Shown here: positions 46,852 through 56,161 of the stretch, piece after piece
Layout of the letters: every line of letters begins with the position of its first letter
Numbering within the stretch: the stretch's first letter is position 1
Source of the DNA: an uncultured virus (IMG/VR IMGVR_UViG_3300042465_005830)
Taxonomy: Duplodnaviria; Heunggongvirae; Uroviricota; Caudoviricetes
Virus record (IMG/VR): IMGVR_UViG_3300042465_005830
Location: 1-64,000 of that record
Direction: 5' to 3' (one strand)
DNA: 64,000 bases
The notes under the pieces: model-generated
The model's database searches: none
What the model saw: only the letters and a program-made list of their open reading frames with translations
Told to the model about the DNA's origin: nothing
Made by a program: the position numbers and the translations under genes

Positions 46852-46940
46852 GAATCGGTTGGTGTAATCGGGAATGAATACCGACAGAGGGTAACACCGC
46901 TTCTAAGCGGGATGAGGGTTCGAATCCCTCACCGATTCCA
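46852..46940 (+). ncRNA. tRNA-like RNA with expanded D-loop and aberrant anticodon arm
   Basis: Acceptor GAATCGGT/ACCGATTC; T-arm GAGGG-TTCGAAT-CCCTC; D-loop insert; CCGC-TTCTAA-GCGG. Confidence 0.55.
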
Positions 46941-46943
46941 AAC

Positions 46944-47040
46944 AGTCAGGAGACCATTGGTTGGTGGCACCTCCCCAAGGTTTAGTTGAAATATACTATT
47001 TATGGCAAAGCTGGAGCAGGTTCGAATCCTGTCCTGACTA
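46944..47040 (+). ncRNA. tRNA-like RNA (acceptor + T arm only)
   Basis: AGTCAGG/CCTGACT and GCAGG-TTCGAAT-CCTGT; non-canonical interior. Confidence 0.5.
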
Positions 47041-47081
47041 CAAAATTAAACTACTGTTCTTTGAAATAAAAATTATAAATT

Positions 47082-47393
47082 ATGGAACAAATTTTAGCAT
47101 TTGTTTTAGGGGTTGGTATAGCTCTCCTTGCATGGGGGGTTGTGGTAGCGTTTAGAACAGCAAGCAAAGTAGCAAAGCAAGAAAAAGAGTTAACTGAAAT
47201 ACAGAACTGGATTTCTAGAAACGATGAATTAGTAAATCGTAGAATTGATCAGGAAGTTGATCGAGTAAACAAACTACACTCAGACTGTATTTCCTATACA
47301 GACTCCAGAGTAGACAAATTAGAACAAAAACTTACGTCAATTAACAATGATGGATGTGAGCCAGTTAAGAAAAAAAAATTAATAAACGGATAA
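47082..47393 (+). CDS. membrane-anchored coiled-coil protein
   Basis: N-terminal TM segment plus coiled coil. Confidence 0.6.
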   Translation: MEQILAFVLGVGIALLAWGVVVAFRTASKVAKQEKELTEIQNWISRNDELVNRRIDQEVDRVNKLHSDCISYTDSRVDKLEQKLTSINNDGCEPVKKKKLING

Positions 47394-47533
47394 ATTAATC
47401 CAAAGAACAGTAGTTGTTTTATAAAATAAAAGTTCGTATATTTATAATATATAAAAACACAAAGAAAAAAAATTAAAATATAGTTGGACTGGAATGGAAA
47501 AGTTCATATATTTATATATAGAAAGCAAATAAA

Positions 47534-47677
47534 ATGAAAGCAATTCAAAACATACATCAACAACTTAGCACAGCGACAAGAGCATTGAATACGTGGTCGG
47601 ATTCGTTATGTGGGGATGTCATTTTAGGCTTTGCTGGATATAATAACGAACCGAAACAAGGAGGTACCGGGGTATGA
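47534..47677 (+). CDS. putative leader peptide (47 aa, contains all 20 amino acids)
   Basis: MKAIQNIHQQLSTATRALNTWSDSLCGDVILGFAGYNNEPKQGGTGV; lies after a promoter-like motif and before a terminator. Confidence 0.55.
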   Translation: MKAIQNIHQQLSTATRALNTWSDSLCGDVILGFAGYNNEPKQGGTGV

Positions 47678-47713
47678 TATGATATAGTATAAAATACATA
47701 TTATAAGTAAGGT

Positions 47714-47743
47714 ACCCGGATCAAAAAAAGATTCGGGTTTTTT
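47714..47743 (+). terminator. intrinsic terminator / putative attenuator
   Basis: ACCCGGATC-aaaaaaa-GATTCGGGT followed by TTTTT. Confidence 0.75.
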
Positions 47744-47836
47744 ATTAAAAAAAAGTTGCTAGAAAGAAAAAAAAATCGTATCTTTAGGTACAGAAATAAA
47801 GAATAAGAGTTCATTGACATATTGGATAAAGCATAG

Positions 47837-47920
47837 GGAAGGCATCCGGCTGGATCAGGAGCCACTCTTGAAAAGTGGTAGCAGGTAATACTGTTGTGGG
47901 TTCGAGTCCCACGTCTTCCT
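47837..47920 (+). tRNA. tRNA-Ser(TGA)
   Basis: CCACT-CTTGAAA-AGTGG, long variable arm, TTCGA T-loop. Confidence 0.85.
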
Positions 47921-47926
47921 CAATAT

Positions 47927-47998
47927 TGGCTTATAGTGTAACGGTTAGCACAAAACACTTTGACTGTTTTAGTCTAGGTTCGAATCCTAGTAAGCCAA
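47927..47998 (+). tRNA. tRNA-Gln(TTG)
   Basis: AAACA-CTTTGAC-TGTTT cloverleaf. Confidence 0.9.
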
Positions 47999-48213
47999 CA
48001 AATAATTGTAAGTAATGAAAGCCTATCCCAACACTTGATCAGTAAGTAGGACGGTTAGTAAAGAAAGCATTATCAGTAAGTAGTGGAGAAATCCATATGG
48101 AGAAAACGATGCAAGACATGAGTACAGGGAATCAGCCCGATGGCTTTGCTTACGGAAATTACAGTAGTTTTGAGATGGGCGAATTCTACTTTAAAAAAAT
48201 AATCCCTTCACCA

Positions 48214-48289
48214 CTGGTAGTAGAGGAGTCCGGTTTATCTCGCTGGCCTTGGACGCTAGAGCACGCAGGTTCGAATCCTGCCTACCAGA
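48214..48289 (+). tRNA. tRNA-Pro(TGG)
   Basis: CTGGC-CTTGGAC-GCTAG. Confidence 0.88.
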
Positions 48290-48296
48290 CGAGAAG

Positions 48297-48495
48297 AGAC
48301 TGTTACTAATTCATAGAAGACCACGCGAGTAAGTCCTCGAAGCGTAGAATTAGATTTGCCTTCGAAGCTCATGTGGACGGGCACCGGGCTTTTAACTCGG
48401 GGGTAGCTGGTTCGAGGCCAGCCGGGGGTACAAAAGAAGACTGTTACTAATTCATAGAAGGGCTTTTAGACCGAAGCGTAGAATTAGATTTGCCT
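48297..48495 (+). repeat. two copies of a bipartite spacer element preceding tRNA-Lys and tRNA-Val
   Basis: AGACTGTTACTAATTCATAGAAG at 48297 and 48438; CGAAGCGTAGAATTAGATTTGCCT at 48338 and 48472. Confidence 0.85.
48358..48430 (+). tRNA. tRNA-Lys(TTT)
   Basis: CCGGG-CTTTTAA-CTCGG. Confidence 0.8.
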
Positions 48496-48562
48496 CGTTG
48501 GCGTAATGGTAGCGTATTTGTTTTACATGCAAAGGGCGATAGTTCGATTCTATCACGAGGTA
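48492..48562 (+). tRNA. tRNA-Val(TAC)
   Basis: TTTGT-TTTACAT-GCAAA. Confidence 0.85.
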
Positions 48563-48661
48563 CAAAATTCTGGGTAGCAAGTAAAATACCGGCAAGTATT
48601 TTCAAGACTATATGGAGTCTATTATGAGTTAGTAATTTGCCGATGAAAGCTTGTTATAGTT

Positions 48662-48733
48662 TCGTTCTTGGTAGATTGGTGACTACGCTGCCCGTGGAGG
48701 GTGGAGAAGCAGGTTCGATTCCTGTAGAATGAT
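48662..48733 (+). tRNA. degenerate tRNA (His/Pro-like, anticodon loop lacks U33)
   Basis: Acceptor TCGTTCT/AGAATGA and T-arm intact; loop CGTGGAG. Confidence 0.5.
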
Positions 48734-48739
48734 CAAATT

Positions 48740-48822
48740 GGGATGCTTCAGTCACTGGTGTGATAAGCGGTCTGTAAAATCGTTGCTGTAAGAAGCGTGT
48801 GGTTCGATTCCACAGTATCCCA
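48740..48822 (+). tRNA. tRNA-Tyr(GTA)
   Basis: GCGGT-CTGTAAA-ATCGT, long variable arm. Confidence 0.8.
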
Positions 48823-48827
48823 CAATT

Positions 48828-48900
48828 GGACCTTTTGTATAGCTGGTGCGTACGCTAGTCTGAAGAACTAGAGGAACAGGTTCGATTCCTGTAGGGTCCA
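48828..48900 (+). tRNA. tRNA-Phe(GAA)
   Basis: CTAGT-CTGAAGA-ACTAG. Confidence 0.88.
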
Positions 48901-48905
48901 CAACC

Positions 48906-48977
48906 GGGTTTGTCGTATAAAGGTTATTACGGATGACTGTTAATCATCTTATGGAGGTTCGATTCCTCCCAGGCCCG
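48906..48977 (+). tRNA. tRNA-Asn(GTT)
   Basis: GATGA-CTGTTAA-TCATC. Confidence 0.88.
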
Positions 48978-48986
48978 CAATTAAAT

Positions 48987-49130
48987 GCTCGTATAACAGG
49001 TAGTGTGGTAGCTCCCCAACCTGAAGTGGGATAACGTGACGGTCAATCGTAAAAGCTCAAGGTACGTAACAAGTAGCAGTTGGTTGGAGTAAGTGACTTA
49101 TCGAGGTTGGTTCGATTCCAGCTATGAGCA
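48987..49130 (+). ncRNA. 144-nt tRNA-like RNA with large non-canonical interior
   Basis: Acceptor GCTCGTA/TATGAGC+A; T-arm GTTGG-TTCGATT-CCAGC. Confidence 0.55.
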
Positions 49131-49137
49131 CAAAAAT

Positions 49138-49211
49138 AGGTAATTAGCTCAATTGGTTAGAGCACTCGCCTGATACGTGAGAGGTTATAGGTTCGATTCC
49201 TATATTACCTA
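49138..49211 (+). tRNA. tRNA-Ile(GAT)
   Basis: CTCGC-CTGATAC-GTGAG. Confidence 0.9.
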
Positions 49212-49216
49212 CAAAG

Positions 49217-49299
49217 GGAAAGTAAATCAACTAGGAGTTGAGACCGCTTGCTAAGCGTATCGTGCCTTCGGGCATGGGGTTCGATACCTCTGCTTTCCT
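49217..49299 (+). tRNA. tRNA-Ser(GCT)
   Basis: TTGCTAA loop; long variable arm TGCC-TTCG-GGCA. Confidence 0.75.
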
Positions 49300-49505
49300 C
49301 AAAAAAACCTCCTCACCGTCCTCACAACGCATCTAAGGAATGCAGGAGAAGGAAGTACGAACGGGGCCCCGTGGTAAGACACTTTAAAATCAGATAGTAC
49401 AGCGATAGGGTAAGAGGTTCCCTATCAACTACCGACTTGATCTAGGATCGAGAATATCTCATAAGTATTCTCAGACAAGAGCGTAACTTGTAGTCGGTAC
49501 AATAT

Positions 49506-49579
49506 GGTGATTGTAGCTGAATTGGTAAAGCGTCTGATTGTGGTTCAGGAGATTGTGGGTTCGAGTCCCATCTTTCACA
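49506..49579 (+). tRNA. tRNA-His(GTG)
   Basis: TCTGA-TTGTGGT-TCAGG; encoded G-1; two U-U pairs in the acceptor stem. Confidence 0.8.
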
Positions 49580-49586
49580 CAAACAT

Positions 49587-49666
49587 ATCCCTGTGGTGAA
49601 AATGGTAAACACACCAGGCTTAAAACTTGGCGCTCAGGCTTGCTGGTTCGACTCCAGTCAGGGGTA
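49587..49666 (+). tRNA. tRNA-Leu(TAA)
   Basis: CCAGG-CTTAAAA-CTTGG. Confidence 0.85.
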
Positions 49667-49742
49667 CAAAGAGAGAGATGTAGGACTAATTGCCTACCCT
49701 GTTGCATAGCAGAAAGTAGCTTAAATAAAGCCTCTCTTATTT

Positions 49743-49814
49743 GGTCTTATAGTTTAATTGGAAAAACTTATCGCTACGAACGATAGAACGTAGGTTCGAC
49801 TCCTACTAAGACCT
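49743..49814 (+). tRNA. tRNA-Arg(ACG)
   Basis: TATCG-CTACGAA-CGATA. Confidence 0.88.
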
Positions 49815-49819
49815 CAACT

Positions 49820-49891
49820 GCCCGTATAGTTTAATCGGAAGAACTAAACGCTTCTAACGTTTCAGTCCTGGTTCAAGTCCAGGTATGGGTT
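49820..49891 (+). tRNA. tRNA-Arg(TCT)
   Basis: AAACG-CTTCTAA-CGTTT. Confidence 0.88.
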
Positions 49892-49963
49892 CAAAAAAAT
49901 CGTCCCTCATAAGGGTTAAGTAGATGAGGCTAATCTAGGTAGGTTAAGCGATACCCTACAAAT

Positions 49964-50034
49964 GCGTTCCACAGACAAGGTGTCGGTCAGGTCTCCAAAA
50001 CCTCGACGGCTGGGTTCGATTCCTAGGGTTCGCG
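49964..50034 (+). tRNA. tRNA-Trp(CCA), non-canonical D arm
   Basis: AGGT-CTCCAAA-ACCT; T-arm CTGGG-TTCGATT-CCTAG. Confidence 0.7.
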
Positions 50035-50066
50035 CAAATATATTGTTTCATTAAAAAAAGTAAATC

Positions 50067-50573
50067 ATGAGTAAGTATCAAAAAGCACTAGTAGTAGATG
50101 CCAGCTTTATCGCAAGATCAGTTATAAGTACAGAAAGAGCTTTCGTGATTTCTTATAAAGGTAATGCTGAAGTAATAGCTGAACATCCAGAAACATTTAA
50201 TCTGTATAACCCAGAATTAACAATTTATAAACCTTCTATTATTAGAGTATTTACATATGTAAAACATAATATTCAAAAAGTAGCTCTAACAAGAGAGAAT
50301 ATTTATAGAAGAGATAATTACGAATGTGTTTACTGCGGATGTTCAAATCAAAGAACACTAACACTTGACCATGTTATACCTCAATCAAAAGGAGGAAAAG
50401 ATGCTTGGGATAATTTAGTAACAGCCTGCAGACCATGTAATCATGAGAAAGCAGATTTAACATTAGAGGAATACGGTAAGGAAATTCCAGAACCAAAAAG
50501 ACCTCACTATTTAATGTTAATGAGAACTATGACACACATACCAAAGGAATGGGAAACTTTTTTATTTTTTTAG
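50067..50573 (+). CDS. HNH endonuclease (McrA-like) within the tRNA array
   Basis: RDNYECVYCG ... TLDHVIPQSKGG..WDNLVTACRPCNHEK. Confidence 0.92.
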   Translation: MSKYQKALVVDASFIARSVISTERAFVISYKGNAEVIAEHPETFNLYNPELTIYKPSIIRVFTYVKHNIQKVALTRENIYRRDNYECVYCGCSNQRTLTLDHVIPQSKGGKDAWDNLVTACRPCNHEKADLTLEEYGKEIPEPKRPHYLMLMRTMTHIPKEWETFLFF

Positions 50574-50700
50574 TAAAAAAAGTTGCTAGAAAGAAATAAA
50601 GTTCATATCTTTAAGTATAAGAAAGAAGATAAAACATCTACTACGTAACGCACGATCGACGACACGTACTGTCTGGCAGGTCAGGCTAGATGTTTAAATT

Positions 50701-50771
50701 GGTCGGTTGGCCGAATGGTTAGGCGCAGGATTGCAAACTCTGTAACGTTGGTTCGATTCCAACACCGACCT
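50701..50771 (+). tRNA. tRNA-Cys(GCA)
   Basis: TTGCAAA loop; U73 discriminator. Confidence 0.85.
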
Positions 50772-50866
50772 CATTGAAGGTTCGACCCTCTACCAAATGT
50801 GTTACACCCACAGATGGACAACGAGAGGGAGCTACCGATTGATAAGTGGCCGCACATGCGGCAAAT

Positions 50867-50940
50867 GCCCGAGTGGTGGAATTGGCAGACACGCTAGACT
50901 TAGGATCTAGATATTGAGGGTTCGAGTCCCTCCTTGGGTA
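50867..50940 (+). tRNA. tRNA-Leu(TAG) with short variable loop
   Basis: CTAGA-CTTAGGA-TCTAG; Leu-type D-loop but only a 5-nt variable region. Confidence 0.8.
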
Positions 50941-50945
50941 CAAAA

Positions 50946-51016
50946 TTAGAGTTAGCTTATAAAGGTTAAAGCAGCAGGGGCTAACCTGCAGAACGGATTC
51001 ATAGCCCGGCTCTAAT
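50946..51016 (+). pseudogene. degenerate tRNA-like element
   Basis: Acceptor TTAGAGT/GCTCTAA; GCAGG-GGCTAA-CCTGC 6-nt loop; eroded T arm. Confidence 0.45.
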
Positions 51017-51135
51017 TAAAATATAAACTATTATGCGTAAAAAGTTAGATAGATGTGCAGATAAGATTGGGAAGCCGAGTTTACGGTGAAAGGCTGCCAC
51101 TGATGACTCCCAATAGCCTCTAATAGTTTAAATTT

Positions 51136-51209
51136 GCTTCTGACGCACAAATGGTGGTGCACTGGATTTGTAACCCAGAATAGAGTCGGTTCGATCCCGT
51201 CCAGAAGCT
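51136..51209 (+). tRNA. tRNA-Thr(TGT)
   Basis: CTGG..TTTGTAA..CCAG. Confidence 0.8.
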
Positions 51210-51214
51210 CAACT

Positions 51215-51286
51215 GCGGCTATCGTATAATGGTCATTACTTTAGACTTCCAATCTAAAGATGAGAGTTCGATTCTCTCTAGCCGCT
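51215..51286 (+). tRNA. tRNA-Gly(TCC)
   Basis: TTAGA-CTTCCAA-TCTAA; U73. Confidence 0.9.
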
Positions 51287-51292
51287 CAAATT

Positions 51293-51364
51293 GCTGCGTT
51301 AGTGAAGGGGTAAACACGTATCACTTTCTATGATAAGGCACGGGTTCGAATCCCGTACGCAGTA
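51293..51364 (+). tRNA. tRNA-Glu(TTC)
   Basis: TATCA-CTTTCTA-TGATA. Confidence 0.85.
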
Positions 51365-51439
51365 CAGAGCTCTTTATTCGTATTAGGAGGAATAGCTTAA
51401 TCAGCTTCTAGATTTGACGACTCGGAAAGACGAGTAACT

Positions 51440-51511
51440 GGGGCTATAGTGAAATTGGCATCACGATAGATTTGCATTCTGTTATTCCGGGTTCGAATCC
51501 CGGTAGCTCCA
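51440..51511 (+). tRNA. tRNA-Ala(TGC)
   Basis: GGGGCTA/TAGCTCC with G3-U70; TTTGCAT loop. Confidence 0.9.
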
Positions 51512-51565
51512 CTATACAGCTGTATAACAGCTGGTGGTTGACAGCTCGGAACAGACGGGCATTTT

Positions 51566-51638
51566 GGTCTGGAGGTGTTATTGGTAACACGTCGCACTGT
51601 CACTGCGAAGATTGCGGGTTCGATCCCCGTGCAGACCG
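51566..51638 (+). tRNA. tRNA-Asp(GTC)
   Basis: TCGCA-CTGTCAC-TGCGA; G73. Confidence 0.85.
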
Positions 51639-51647
51639 CTTATAAAT

Positions 51648-51717
51648 TGCGTTAAGGTGTAAAGGTTGCATCTAGGTCTCATAAGCCTGGGGGGTGGTTC
51701 GAGTCCACGCTACGCTA
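51648..51717 (+). tRNA. tRNA-Met(CAT), possibly initiator-like
   Basis: TAGGT-CTCATAA-GCCTG; mismatched acceptor end. Confidence 0.65.
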
Positions 51718-51723
51718 CAAATT

Positions 51724-51797
51724 GTCCTTTTAGCTCAGCCGGTTAGAGCAGCTCGCTCATAACGAGAAGGTCACAGGTTCGAATCCTGTATAGGACA
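51724..51797 (+). tRNA. tRNA-Met/Ile2(CAT)
   Basis: CTCG-CTCATAA-CGAG; canonical D and T arms. Confidence 0.85.
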
Positions 51798-51864
51798 CTA
51801 AAGTTTATCCAATATGAGAGCAATTCCCTCATCTCCAATGTAGTACTTGACTAGTTCAAGTATT

Positions 51865-52177: not shown

Positions 52178-53089
52178 ATGAAAAATTCGTTATCTACAAA
52201 AGGGTTATCAATGTCTCAAGCACAATCAATCTCAAACTTGTGCAATCAAAGAGCAAAAGAAATTTCTAATAAATTAGCAGATGTTAATAATGTTTCTAAA
52301 ACATTAGTAATTGGCTCAGAGACCTATACTGAGACTCAGGGTAATCCAATGCCTGCAAATACAGTAGAACTGTTAACAGAAAAAGCAAGACTATCTGCTA
52401 CACAAGCCTTCTTGATGGAGAACATCAAAGCAAAAGACGAATTAATCAAAGAGATCCAATTTGAGGACTTTGACTATACTATCCTAGCTCCAGAAAGACC
52501 TAAAACTGCAACTAAAGAATTACCTTCCTTAATAGATGAGGAATGGGGATGGTCTCAATTGACTACAGCAGAGTATAACGAATACTTAGAAGCAGAAGCT
52601 TACGCTTCACATATTGGACAATTTATCCACAAAGGAGGTAAATTAGATAAATTAAGAAGTGAATTACCTACCATTAAGACTTTAGAGTTTATGGAAATCG
52701 AAGTAGGAAAGAAAACTCCTATGAAAGTTTCTATTCACCACACCTCAGAAGGGTTACTTGCAATTCACGAAGAGTTAGCTAGTCTTCATAGAAACTATGA
52801 GCAAAAAGTTAACTACTTTAAATCTAAAGTAAAGAACTCAGTAACAACTGAAAATGCTCGTATTGCTAATGAAAGAGCAGAAATTCAAGCTGAATTGAAT
52901 GAGATAAACGGCAAACAGGATGCTGACTACAATGCAGGGTTGGAGAAATGGAGAGCTGATTTTAGAAAAGCTTCTAATGAATTTGAAGCAAAACGTCAAG
53001 AAAGAATCAAAGAAGCTGCTAATATGAAGATTGATATTGATTCTAGATTTCAGCCAGTGGTTGATATGTTCTTAAAACAGTTACAATAA
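52178..53089 (+). CDS. helical/coiled-coil hypothetical protein (303 aa)
   Basis: ORF with its own promoter-like motif; followed by a structured RNA. Confidence 0.7.
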   Translation: MKNSLSTKGLSMSQAQSISNLCNQRAKEISNKLADVNNVSKTLVIGSETYTETQGNPMPANTVELLTEKARLSATQAFLMENIKAKDELIKEIQFEDFDYTILAPERPKTATKELPSLIDEEWGWSQLTTAEYNEYLEAEAYASHIGQFIHKGGKLDKLRSELPTIKTLEFMEIEVGKKTPMKVSIHHTSEGLLAIHEELASLHRNYEQKVNYFKSKVKNSVTTENARIANERAEIQAELNEINGKQDADYNAGLEKWRADFRKASNEFEAKRQERIKEAANMKIDIDSRFQPVVDMFLKQLQ

Positions 53090-53092
53090 TTT

Positions 53093-53392
53093 GGTGCTAA
53101 GGAGGTAAGCACAAGCCGATCCTCCAAAGCTTTATGCTGGGATAGTGGAGTTTTAAATATAAAACTATATGATAGCAAATCAACTACATTTAATGGCCAG
53201 GTGCCCTTTAACACTCGCTTCCTTACAAACTTTACAAAACTGAGATAGAACTCAACCGTTAGACAGGTCTGCTCGAAAGAGGTAATTGGCTAACAACTTT
53301 GAGACTTAGTTCTTGTCCTTGCCTTTGTGGTAAGGAAGGTCTTTGACCTTGATTTTGCATTCGACATCGTCTATATGCTTTACATCCCAGCA
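53093..53392 (+). ncRNA. unidentified ~300-nt structured RNA
   Basis: Nested long-range helices TGCTGGGAT/ATCCCAGCA, CTTCCTTAC/GTAAGGAAG and AACTGAG/CTTAGTT; hexamer array. Confidence 0.6.
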
Positions 53393-53424
53393 ACAATTTT
53401 TTTAAAAATAATTAACAAAAAGCT

Positions 53425-53460
53425 TGCTTCGGCAGGCTTTTATTCGTATATTTAGGTATA
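53425..53460 (+). promoter_or_regulatory. representative recurrent promoter (TTG ... TTCGTATATTTAG), Bacteroidota sigma-A-like
   Basis: Near-identical motif upstream of many genes (e.g. ~17983, 43534, 46488, 47433, 47503, 47776, 50602, 56198, 57393, 59589, 60587, 63729). Confidence 0.6.
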
Positions 53461-53471
53461 ATTAATAAGAC

Positions 53472-54122
53472 ATGAAACTAGTATTAGAAAAAGGACAACA
53501 ATTGTTCTTTACATCAGACACACATTACTCACATTCAAACATTTGCAGTGCTACTACAAACTGGACTGAGTCTTCAAACTTGACAAGAGAATTCGATTCA
53601 CTTGCCTCTATGAATAAGACTTTGGTGGATAACATCAACAACATGGTTGGTGAAGATGATATTCTAATTCACTTAGGGGATTTTAGCTTTGGAGGATTTG
53701 ATAAGATTGAAGAATTCAGAAGTCAAATCAACTGTAAAAACATTCACTTGGTACTTGGAAACCATGATCACCACATTGAAAGAAACAAGGAAGGTATTCA
53801 AAGACTATTTTCTTCAGTACAGCAATACTTGAGATTAGAAGTAAGAAGACCAATCAACAAAGCAACAACTGAAAAGTTTACTTTTGTTTGTATGCACTAT
53901 CCAATTGCGTCATGGCATGATATGAACATCGGAGTAATTCACTTACATGGACACGTTCATTTACCGGCAGATATAAGAGTAGCAGAGGGTAAAGCAATGG
54001 ATGTTGGAGTAGATGGAAACGGTTTAGAGCCAATTTCATTAGACGAAGTATTATCGTTGATGGAAAAACAGCCAATAAGAAAGTTAGAGTTGCCAAAGGA
54101 TCATCATGAGAAAAGAATCTAA
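53472..54122 (+). CDS. calcineurin-like metallophosphoesterase
   Basis: SDTHYSH, HLGDF, GNHD, HYP, HGHVH, DVGVD. Confidence 0.88.
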   Translation: MKLVLEKGQQLFFTSDTHYSHSNICSATTNWTESSNLTREFDSLASMNKTLVDNINNMVGEDDILIHLGDFSFGGFDKIEEFRSQINCKNIHLVLGNHDHHIERNKEGIQRLFSSVQQYLRLEVRRPINKATTEKFTFVCMHYPIASWHDMNIGVIHLHGHVHLPADIRVAEGKAMDVGVDGNGLEPISLDEVLSLMEKQPIRKLELPKDHHEKRI

Positions 54123-55030: not shown

Positions 55031-56161
55031 ATGGAAAATCAAAATAGTGTTTGCTTTGTAGCAACAATCAACGAAATTAAAGCAATCCCAAATGCTGACA
55101 ACATTGAACAAGTAATTGTTGGAGGATGGAATGCTATCACTAAAAAAGGTGAATTTAAAGAAGGTGACTTAACAGTTATTGCAACTACAGATGCAGTAAT
55201 TCCAGAAGCATTTTCTGAAAAAATGGGAGTTACTTCTTACCTAAGAAAAGGAGGTAGAGTAAGAACTGTAAAATTAAGAGGAGTTTATTCTGAATGTCTA
55301 ATCATCCCAACTAAATACATTCCAGGATATGGAGACAGATACCAAGATGGAGATGACATGATGGAAAAATTTGGTATTGTAAAATATGAACCACCAGTTA
55401 AACAAATTCAATTGGCTTCAGGTAGAAAGATTAAGTGGAGAGACAATCAAAACTTCCACATCTACTACAAATTCCCGAATCTTAAAAACGTAGCAGGAAT
55501 GTTCACTGAAGAAGATATGGTTCAAATCACTAGAAAGATTCATGGTACAAATGCTAGATACGGTATTGTAAAGAAAGGTAAGTTATCATTCTGGGATAAA
55601 GTAAAAAAATTCTTTAGACTTGCTGATGAGTGGATTGATTATGAATACATTTATGGATCACATAACTGTGAAAAAGGAAGTGACTCACAAGGATTTTACT
55701 CAACTGATGTTTGGAGAACAATAGCTGAAAAATATAGTATTAAAGAAAAACTTTGGGACCTATGTGATATTCTTGGAACTTATCATGTAGGTGATGGAAT
55801 TATTCTTTACGGAGAAATTTATGGAGCCGGTATTCAAAAGAACTATGAATATGGTTTGAAAGATATTGAGTTCGTAGGATTTGATTTAAAAATGGATAAC
55901 GAATATCTCTCAACAGATTCAGCTCAATATGAAATAATCAATATGTTACACTTACCTCACGTAGAAGTACTTTACACCGGAACTTGGAATCAAGAAGTTC
56001 AAGACATGTTTGTATTTAATAACTTCATTGAAGGAACAAAAGTACCACATGAAGGAATTGTAATCAAACATACCTCAGGTGATAGAAAGAAAGTAGCAAA
56101 GGTAATCAATCCAGACTATTTGATCTACGGAGAGAAGCATGATGTAGGAGATTCACATTAA
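55031..56161 (+). CDS. ATP-dependent RNA ligase (DRB0094/Rnl2-like) with N-terminal OB fold
   Basis: IPNADNIE, KLRGVYSE, motif I KIHGTN, YGEIYG, FDL, EGIVIK, KVINPDY. Confidence 0.88.
   Translation: MENQNSVCFVATINEIKAIPNADNIEQVIVGGWNAITKKGEFKEGDLTVIATTDAVIPEAFSEKMGVTSYLRKGGRVRTVKLRGVYSECLIIPTKYIPGYGDRYQDGDDMMEKFGIVKYEPPVKQIQLASGRKIKWRDNQNFHIYYKFPNLKNVAGMFTEEDMVQITRKIHGTNARYGIVKKGKLSFWDKVKKFFRLADEWIDYEYIYGSHNCEKGSDSQGFYSTDVWRTIAEKYSIKEKLWDLCDILGTYHVGDGIILYGEIYGAGIQKNYEYGLKDIEFVGFDLKMDNEYLSTDSAQYEIINMLHLPHVEVLYTGTWNQEVQDMFVFNNFIEGTKVPHEGIVIKHTSGDRKKVAKVINPDYLIYGEKHDVGDSH

Follow-up and report, generated by a model that had tools for sequence, protein, structure and literature searches.

A putative ribosome-read attenuator ahead of the tRNA gene array of an Immutovirus-related phage

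Results

A leader ORF and an intrinsic terminator precede a tRNA array

Comparison of homologous loci indicated that a short leader open reading frame (ORF), located upstream of a phage tRNA gene array, is probably part of a transcription attenuator that is read by the ribosome and gauges the tRNA pool. A more specific proposal, that the leader has evolved as a "decoding self-test" sampling nearly every tRNA species once and gating late tRNA transcription, is one to which we give an even chance. The stretch of DNA analyzed (the window, 64,000 nt) belongs to a 76,413-nt virus record, whose gene content includes tail sheath, tube, hub, fibre, helicase, QueC, and RNA ligase genes (annotation including PHROGs). 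Since its sheath protein shares 91.4% identity with the sheath of Flavobacterium phage vB_FspM_immuto (Immutovirus) and the gene order is common to both, the host is probably a Flavobacterium. The features of the region considered here are the following:

47413..47446, + strand: P1a, upstream promoter-like site; host-type -33/-7 plus ATATTTATA; PWM 20.3, intergenic; putative function
47483..47516, + strand: P1b, predicted leader promoter; host-type -33/-7, overlapped by ATATTTATA at 47508-47516
47534..47677, + strand: leader ORF; 47 codons covering 20/20 amino acids and the two tRNA classes of each of Ser, Leu, and Ile; A at -3
47597..47609, + strand: helix segment A, codons 22-26; its partner is segment B
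47643..47654, + strand: helix segment B, codons 37-41; its partner is segment A
47663..47674, + strand: antiterminator segment, formed by the last four sense codons; partner 47713-47722, duplex -11.5 kcal/mol
47714..47743, + strand: intrinsic terminator; 9-bp stem 47714-47738, T-run to 47743
47755..47785, + strand: P2, bypass promoter-like site; host-type -33/-7 without the late motif
47809..47824, + strand: conserved 16-mer preceding the first tRNA gene
47837..51798, + strand: tRNA array serving the full set of 20 amino acids; includes an HNH gene and a second host-type site
50582..50612, + strand: second host-type promoter-like site, inside the array

The first-pass annotation had described the array as serving 20 amino acids and as starting about 95 nt downstream of the terminator. 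Both statements were borne out: tRNA-Ser starts at 47837, 94 nt past the terminator, and ARAGORN recovered 19 of the amino acids by default, the Trp tRNA (49964-50035) being called only at a relaxed threshold, together with Ser-GCT and two more CAT tRNAs. The leader is followed by tRNA genes in 49/49 loci (L015-L063, duplicates included; 41 non-redundant), with the first tRNA 113-391 nt away in 47 of them and 772 and 866 nt away in two, and also in L067 and L072-L074. The 16-mer, which we take to be boxA-like, was matched exactly to its consensus in 71/87 loci, a count in which duplicates and non-leader loci are included.

The cultured phage Immutovirus immuto offers a natural contrast. It carries the same flanking genes, and at the array site a host-type promoter and only three tRNAs (ARAGORN); leader, terminator, and boxA-like motif are all missing. 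This contrast represents one event, possibly one deletion.

Several other elements were observed in the region. The HNH nuclease gene (50067-50573) occupies a similar place inside the array in most relatives and is followed by the host-type promoter-like site. Elements resembling tRNAs, with odd loops or long insertions, were located at 46853-46939, 46945-47042, 48662-48734, 48985-49133, and 50944-51022; the one at 46853 is called as Leu here and annotated as Cys in Immutovirus, and possible roles for these elements are decoys or non-standard tRNAs. A duplicated spacer (48297-48361 and 48438-48495, two blocks of ~22-24 nt) lies ahead of tRNA-Lys and tRNA-Val. The spacer of ~90 nt between tRNA-Cys and tRNA-Leu (50776-50866) is highly conserved in Immutovirus (L088 15830-15918), where most tRNAs have been lost; it gave no Rfam match and is a candidate small non-coding RNA. 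Upstream of the leader, a 21-nt inverted repeat (90%; 47049-47069 and 47395-47415) loops out a 103-codon ORF (47082-47393) that is skipped in a relative's contig. The repeat is kept in Immutovirus with changed letters and may represent a stem for processing, placed around a gene that was inserted. Downstream of the array, a conserved gene of unknown function (303 aa; 52178-53089) is followed by a long structured non-coding stretch (53089-53425; -82.7 kcal/mol, a raw value with no shuffle control), and genes for a phosphoesterase (53472-54122) and an RNA ligase (55031-56161) constitute a possible tRNA repair pair.

Amino acid completeness of the leader is under selection

The presence of all 20 amino acids in the 47-codon ORF, reported in the first-pass annotation, was confirmed. 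A complete single 47-mer has a chance of 1.4% with the amino acid use of the contig, 1.5% (264/17462) of the 47-aa windows of real proteins are complete, and so is 2.8% of random DNA with the composition of the leader ORF. Since about one complete ORF was expected among the 44 ORFs of the contig that start with ATG and encode 40-55 aa and one was seen, the single case proves little, and the argument rests on homologues. The additional claim that the leader uses uncommon GC-ending codons was upheld in part: its GC3 is 0.33 versus 0.21 in the background, but five of these codons (TCG twice, CCG, ACC, and GGG) fall inside paired RNA segments and therefore provide no independent evidence of codon choice. 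The peptide matched no Pfam or PHROG family, and blastn and tblastn searches against 50,697 cultured phage records gave chance matches only, as did Rfam over 47534-47743 (E up to 5; one match with E 1.9, and no T-box).

Homologues were collected from viral loci (14 from a first search, 47 from the next one, and further distant loci added later) and from contigs of MAG assemblies, which contributed two genuine phage-like loci (L062 and L063). Two spurious matches, L064 (11 residues) and L071, were dropped. For leader proteins, the best 120 of 232 matches were taken, and the distant set was made of 20 representatives at 50% identity; distant proteins P0133 and P0139 used as queries yielded no further loci. 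Contigs from four RNA runs (best share 0.22) also cover the leader in relatives, but these may hold DNA and carry no strand, end, or level information, and they are given no weight here. The leaders are ORFs of 44-54 codons in which the ATG and the stop are kept, with A at -3 in 44/44 of them.

All 20 residues were present in 159/174 unique homologous peptides, whereas column shuffling gave 108.5 +/- 3.9 (maximum 123 in 1500 shuffles); fourteen of the 15 incomplete peptides were without one residue and one without two. Column shuffling ignores relatedness, so its p-values overstate significance, and clustering and pseudo-class controls were used; among members below 60% identity, 14/19 were complete versus 4.4 after shuffling. 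Among the distant loci, the leader of L072 lacks Asp and that of L073 lacks Arg. Completeness is kept with positional compensation, as predicted for the comparison of homologous loci that the first-pass annotation had proposed. Thus, His was found outside its usual column in 32/36 peptides that had lost that column versus 4/138 that had kept it, Trp was regained elsewhere in 10/11 column-losers versus 3/163 column-keepers, and Arg in 8/10 versus 20/164. Cys was the exception, being mostly lost outright (rescue in 1/7). Across peptides the single His occupies nine different columns, a distribution that would be hard to obtain by one or two events.

The arrangement of the residues along the peptide is also characteristic. 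His, Trp, Cys, Tyr, Arg, and Pro are present as a single copy in 148-169/174 peptides. The segment upstream of a conserved Lys is complete in 149/174 peptides versus 96 after shuffling, and in 140/159 complete peptides the twentieth residue is reached 7 or 8 codons before the stop, so that the set is completed upstream of the modelled switch point (5-8 codons from the stop).

Codon classes correspond to tRNA species

Within the 44 leader DNAs, codons of separate tRNA classes for the same amino acid were retained: Ser-AGY in 44, Ser-TCN in 44, Leu-TTR in 44, Leu-CTN in 43, Ile-ATY in 44, and Ile-ATA in 44. The array has separate tRNAs for these classes, and all six occur together in 43/44 leaders versus 24.2 expected (maximum 33). 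Ser-AGY is spread over 13 columns (37.1 leaders expected) and Leu-CTN over 11 (34.4 expected). Four out of the 25 classes that were tested (Ser-AGY, Leu-CTN, His, and Thr-ACG) passed p 0.0002, and codon-class coverage persisted in the 10-12 members below 60% codon identity (p about 0.002). When compared with 5000 pseudo-classes drawn from the same alignment and sharing the same relatedness, Ser-AGY fell in the 0.6% tail, Leu-CTN in the 0.1% tail, and His in the 3.6% tail; Ile-ATY alone was not significant (15%).

Sampling is not uniform over the array. Val-GTY, Val-GTR, and Ala-GCR, with one phage tRNA each, showed no excess in the leaders, GCG being the sole Val or Ala subclass in excess. Arg-CGN was found in 3/44 leaders and an internal Met in 19/44, though the array encodes such tRNAs. 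ACG occurs in 36/44 leaders and GCG in 31/44, where genome use predicts 9% and 6%, perhaps as slow wobble codons or as marks of a host tRNA class. Taken together, these counts place selection at the codon level, beyond what a functional peptide can explain. Since a peptide is blind to synonymous classes and starvation sensing would need only one of them, these data point to tRNA species, and favor a leader that gauges tRNA species more than amino acids.

The end of the leader pairs with the terminator

The intrinsic terminator indicated in the first-pass annotation at 47714-47743 was verified, and both of its arms were found in 40/41 loci. The stem covaries, with C:G in 24 and T:A in 16 loci at one pair, and G:C in 37 and A:T in 3 at another. 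L042 lacks both the 3' arm and P2, which may reflect a natural deletion or an assembly artefact.

Complementarity had been proposed between CCGGGGTA (47667-47674), in the last codons of the leader, and TACCCGG (47713-47719). These coordinates proved right and the pairing longer, as GGT-A-CCGGG (47663-47671) can span the whole 5' arm. The ORF end (last 21 nt) pairs with the terminator 5' arm in 40/40 loci with an intact terminator, and it does so in several registers that shift with the terminator (GAG/CTC, GGG/CCC, and GATTTGGG/CCCAAATC), which is the covarying antiterminator pairing that the earlier reading had proposed to look for. Cognate duplexes had a mean of -10.25 kcal/mol (40 loci), compared with -1.4 to -5.4 for other windows of the ORF, -6.9 for synonymous recodings, and -9.06 +/- 0.19 for swapped partners (p 5e-5). 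In L018, L019, and L027, pairing with the own arm was worse than with most other arms. Three distant loci retain the antiterminator pairing, with the stop codon further out. The C-terminal residues of the leader vary while keeping the pairing.

Segments A and B form a second helix of 12 pairs, with 86.8% and 98.5% of cells paired and only one two-sided change; it reaches -7 kcal/mol or better in 32/40 loci and is weak in 8/40. The conserved TCG and CCG codons are accounted for by this helix, which we would guess to be a pause or pacing hairpin. Segment B was also considered as a classical "2:3" antiterminator and rejected by eye, because it remains invariant across loci with different terminator arms. 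Helix A:B excludes the antiterminator, and thus no 1:2 helix sequesters the antiterminator when the leader is untranslated.

In a nascent-RNA model with the ribosome as a mask, the 5' arm was captured (median about 1.0) with the ribosome at least 6-8 codons off the stop or absent, and capture decreased to a median of 0.1-0.6 with the ribosome nearer the stop. Without a ribosome, the model gave a median probability of 0.99 for upstream pairing of the 5' arm. Masking by a ribosome at the stop was incomplete in this model (0.65-0.71 for the window, median 0.44-0.58). At equilibrium, the finished RNA without a ribosome favored the terminator (0.66 for the window, median 0.79), which rose to 0.99 with a ribosome at the stop. 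With the terminator as the preferred fold of the finished RNA in most states, control must be kinetic. The geometry and the folding model predict that full translation would lead to the terminator, and stalling to the antiterminator.

Two putative promoter classes precede the leader and the array

A promoter-like motif downstream of the terminator had been put forward as a caveat, and it is indeed present at 47755-47785 (P2) and kept in 39/40 loci, being absent from L041. P2 belongs to the best-scoring promoter class in the contig. Since it is conserved, transcription must have some way into the array besides the leader. The host-type motif resembles the Bacteroidota -33/-7 promoter (TTTG/TANNTTTG, PMC6847099), with A at the last place here. 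It also precedes many early-type genes, and the host-type part of P1b was found in 24/41 loci.

A different motif, ATATTTATA, is located at most 45 nt upstream of the leader in 40/43 loci and at P2 in 0/43. It ends 14-18 nt before the leader ATG in 40/44, and no copy lies within the first 2.5 kb in 12/12 arrays. In a complete relative (G001) this motif is biased in strand (37 versus 6) and is mostly intergenic (31 in 25 kb versus 6 in 140 kb). In the window, the genes that it precedes code for tail fibre, sheath, tube, and hub; in G001, they include those for terminase, adaptor, tube, and hub. The ATATTTATA and host-type classes of G001 (24 and 15 ORFs) do not overlap. Virion or packaging annotations in G001 correspond to 4/24 ORFs of the former class and 0/15 of the latter, which are small counts, and the former class also includes PhoH and the ribonucleotide reductase beta subunit. 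A sigma-70-like protein was found in G001 and in 4/5 further records of relatives, the miss being 53% complete. From this distribution, ATATTTATA is a probable phage late motif. A copy inside the HNH gene (50300) was discarded as a codon coincidence, since it is present in 1/10 HNH copies. The two classes suggest a basal, ungated early supply of tRNA and a gated late supply, "early" and "late" standing here as deduced labels.

Discussion

Proposed mechanism and alternatives

In the mechanism that we propose, transcription would start from P1, and the leader would be translated from an A-rich start with A at -3, typical of Flavobacterium. To judge from conservation, its first ~40 codons would call for nearly every array-encoded tRNA species, mostly once each. 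A ribosome keeping pace would reach the last 5-7 codons and mask the antiterminator, the hairpin at 47714-47743 would form, and transcription would stop; if the ribosome were delayed earlier, or none were loaded, the free antiterminator would seize the 5' arm and the polymerase would enter the array. For this step the structure is backed by covariation, while we infer the timing and presume that transcription and translation are coupled in the host. In a second tier, the host-type P2 and the site at 50582 would provide the ungated early supply, and late tRNA, with the late motif only at P1, would be made mainly when decoding lags. This would constitute a negative feedback loop, in which the tRNA product repairs the decoding signal. 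The first-pass annotation had interpreted the leader as a sensor of tRNA damage, an idea supported by completeness, covariation, and position ahead of the array, and qualified in that Arg-CGN and elongator Met are unreliably sampled and the leader is not the only entrance. As for the trigger, the comparative evidence would equally fit anticodon nucleases, general tRNA decay, or slow decoding.

The attenuator could be real but of minor importance, most array RNA being made from P2 and the internal promoter, with read-through from P1 trimming the level. The high score and wide conservation of P2, the second host-type site inside the array, and the weak annotation counts from which the early and late labels derive would agree with this. 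However, the strong purifying and compensatory selection on the leader and its pairing implies an effect on fitness, the late motif is missing from the beginning of the arrays, L041 dispenses with P2, and in L073 tRNA-Cys lies directly behind the terminator, so that we regard a minor role as unlikely. (The distant leader of L073, at 1432-1900, lies inside a rearranged array in which a promoter-like site appears only after that tRNA.) The same switch might also respond to another signal, either amino acid starvation or a general slowness of ribosomes caused by drugs, cold, or crowding, since any upstream stall would free the antiterminator in the model, and the whiB7 uORF responds to starvation and antibiotics (PMC10274678). 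For starvation, one codon per amino acid would be enough, whereas Ser, Leu, and Ile each retain both of their classes, and extra tRNA would be no cure for a shortage of amino acids; a pure speed gauge, in turn, would have no need of completeness. We consider such a signal improbable.

An alternative of another kind is that the peptide or a short RNA is itself the product, as a small late protein or an sRNA, with the terminator simply ending the transcript and the array being there by linkage. The ~20 near-invariant residues of the peptide, the dedicated late-type promoter, and the conserved internal helix would be expected of such a product. Against it, the positions of Trp, His, Arg, Cys, and Glu change freely among homologues, synonymous classes are under selection, the C-terminal residues change in a way that preserves the terminator pairing, and the leader is missing where the array is reduced, in Immutovirus immuto. 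This explanation is very unlikely, and a ribosome-read attenuator remains our preferred reading.

Relationship to known systems

Classical attenuators (trpL, hisL, leuL, and pheL, and the multivalent thrL and ilvL) contain runs of one to three kinds of codons and control biosynthesis genes, and their 1:2 helix makes the untranslated state terminate. With the trpL/hisL/thrL type the phage element shares a short leader ORF, a mutually exclusive antiterminator, an intrinsic terminator, and, as proposed here, product feedback. Unlike it, the phage leader presents single codons of nearly all tRNA classes with no runs of control codons, has no 1:2 helix, and is predicted to read through when untranslated; the genes controlled would be tRNA genes rather than an amino acid biosynthesis or synthetase operon (49/49 loci). 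T-box riboswitches bind one uncharged tRNA directly, with no ribosome. The phage element resembles them in that tRNA status would be read through the choice between terminator and antiterminator, and differs from them in its proposed reading by the ribosome and in giving no match to the T-box covariance model (Rfam, E up to 5). Attenuation by trp and leu leader peptides is summarized in PMC10274678, and leader-peptide attenuation has been predicted in Flavobacterium (PMC9723704).

The closest parallel is the whiB7 uORF, in which, according to the accessible part of PMC10274678, efficient translation leads to an intrinsic terminator and stalling to an antiterminator. In Mycobacterium smegmatis that uORF lacks only Cys, and a single Trp codon confers Trp sensing; its content differs between species and is enriched in Ala, and selection for completeness is not reported in that part of the article (PMC10274678). 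The phage leader is like the whiB7/wblC uORFs of mycobacteria and other Actinobacteria in its broad amino acid content, and it is predicted, by geometry and folding, to share their switch logic. It is unlike them in belonging to a phage and not to a host, in preceding a tRNA array and not a transcription factor gene, and in that completeness and isoacceptor classes are under selection; it was found in Immutovirus-related phages, not ahead of whiB7/wblC in Actinobacteria. Its proposed logic is that of the whiB7 uORF, and by target or codon design it is a member of neither the whiB7 nor the classical family.

Phage tRNA arrays are described as countering host tRNA depletion by replacing tRNAs lost in infection (PMC10264068). 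In its accessible part, that work deals with which tRNAs are carried and with their resistance to cleavage, and not with regulation of the array as proposed here. Among the titles and beginnings of abstracts covered, no report was found in which a leader or a uORF controls a phage tRNA array. If the proposal is true, this would be the first case of a translated leader exerting feedback on a complete set of tRNAs, and it would provide the phage with a counter-defence that is inducible, nuclease-agnostic, and directed at whatever attack the host mounts on the tRNA pool. The leader could also find use in vivo as a general reporter for tRNA damage, and isoacceptor completeness could become a criterion for finding such sensors elsewhere.

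The reason for the presence of tRNA arrays in phages has long been an open question, with codon compensation and replacement of depleted host tRNAs as the two answers (PMC10264068). Since one codon is kept for nearly every tRNA class, including codons that are common in the phage, the leader would argue for replacement on demand and not for codon compensation, and a 250-nt reporter in a laboratory Flavobacterium makes the question open to testing. The phage itself would thus give the answer to why tRNA arrays exist, in the form of a sensor connected to its array.
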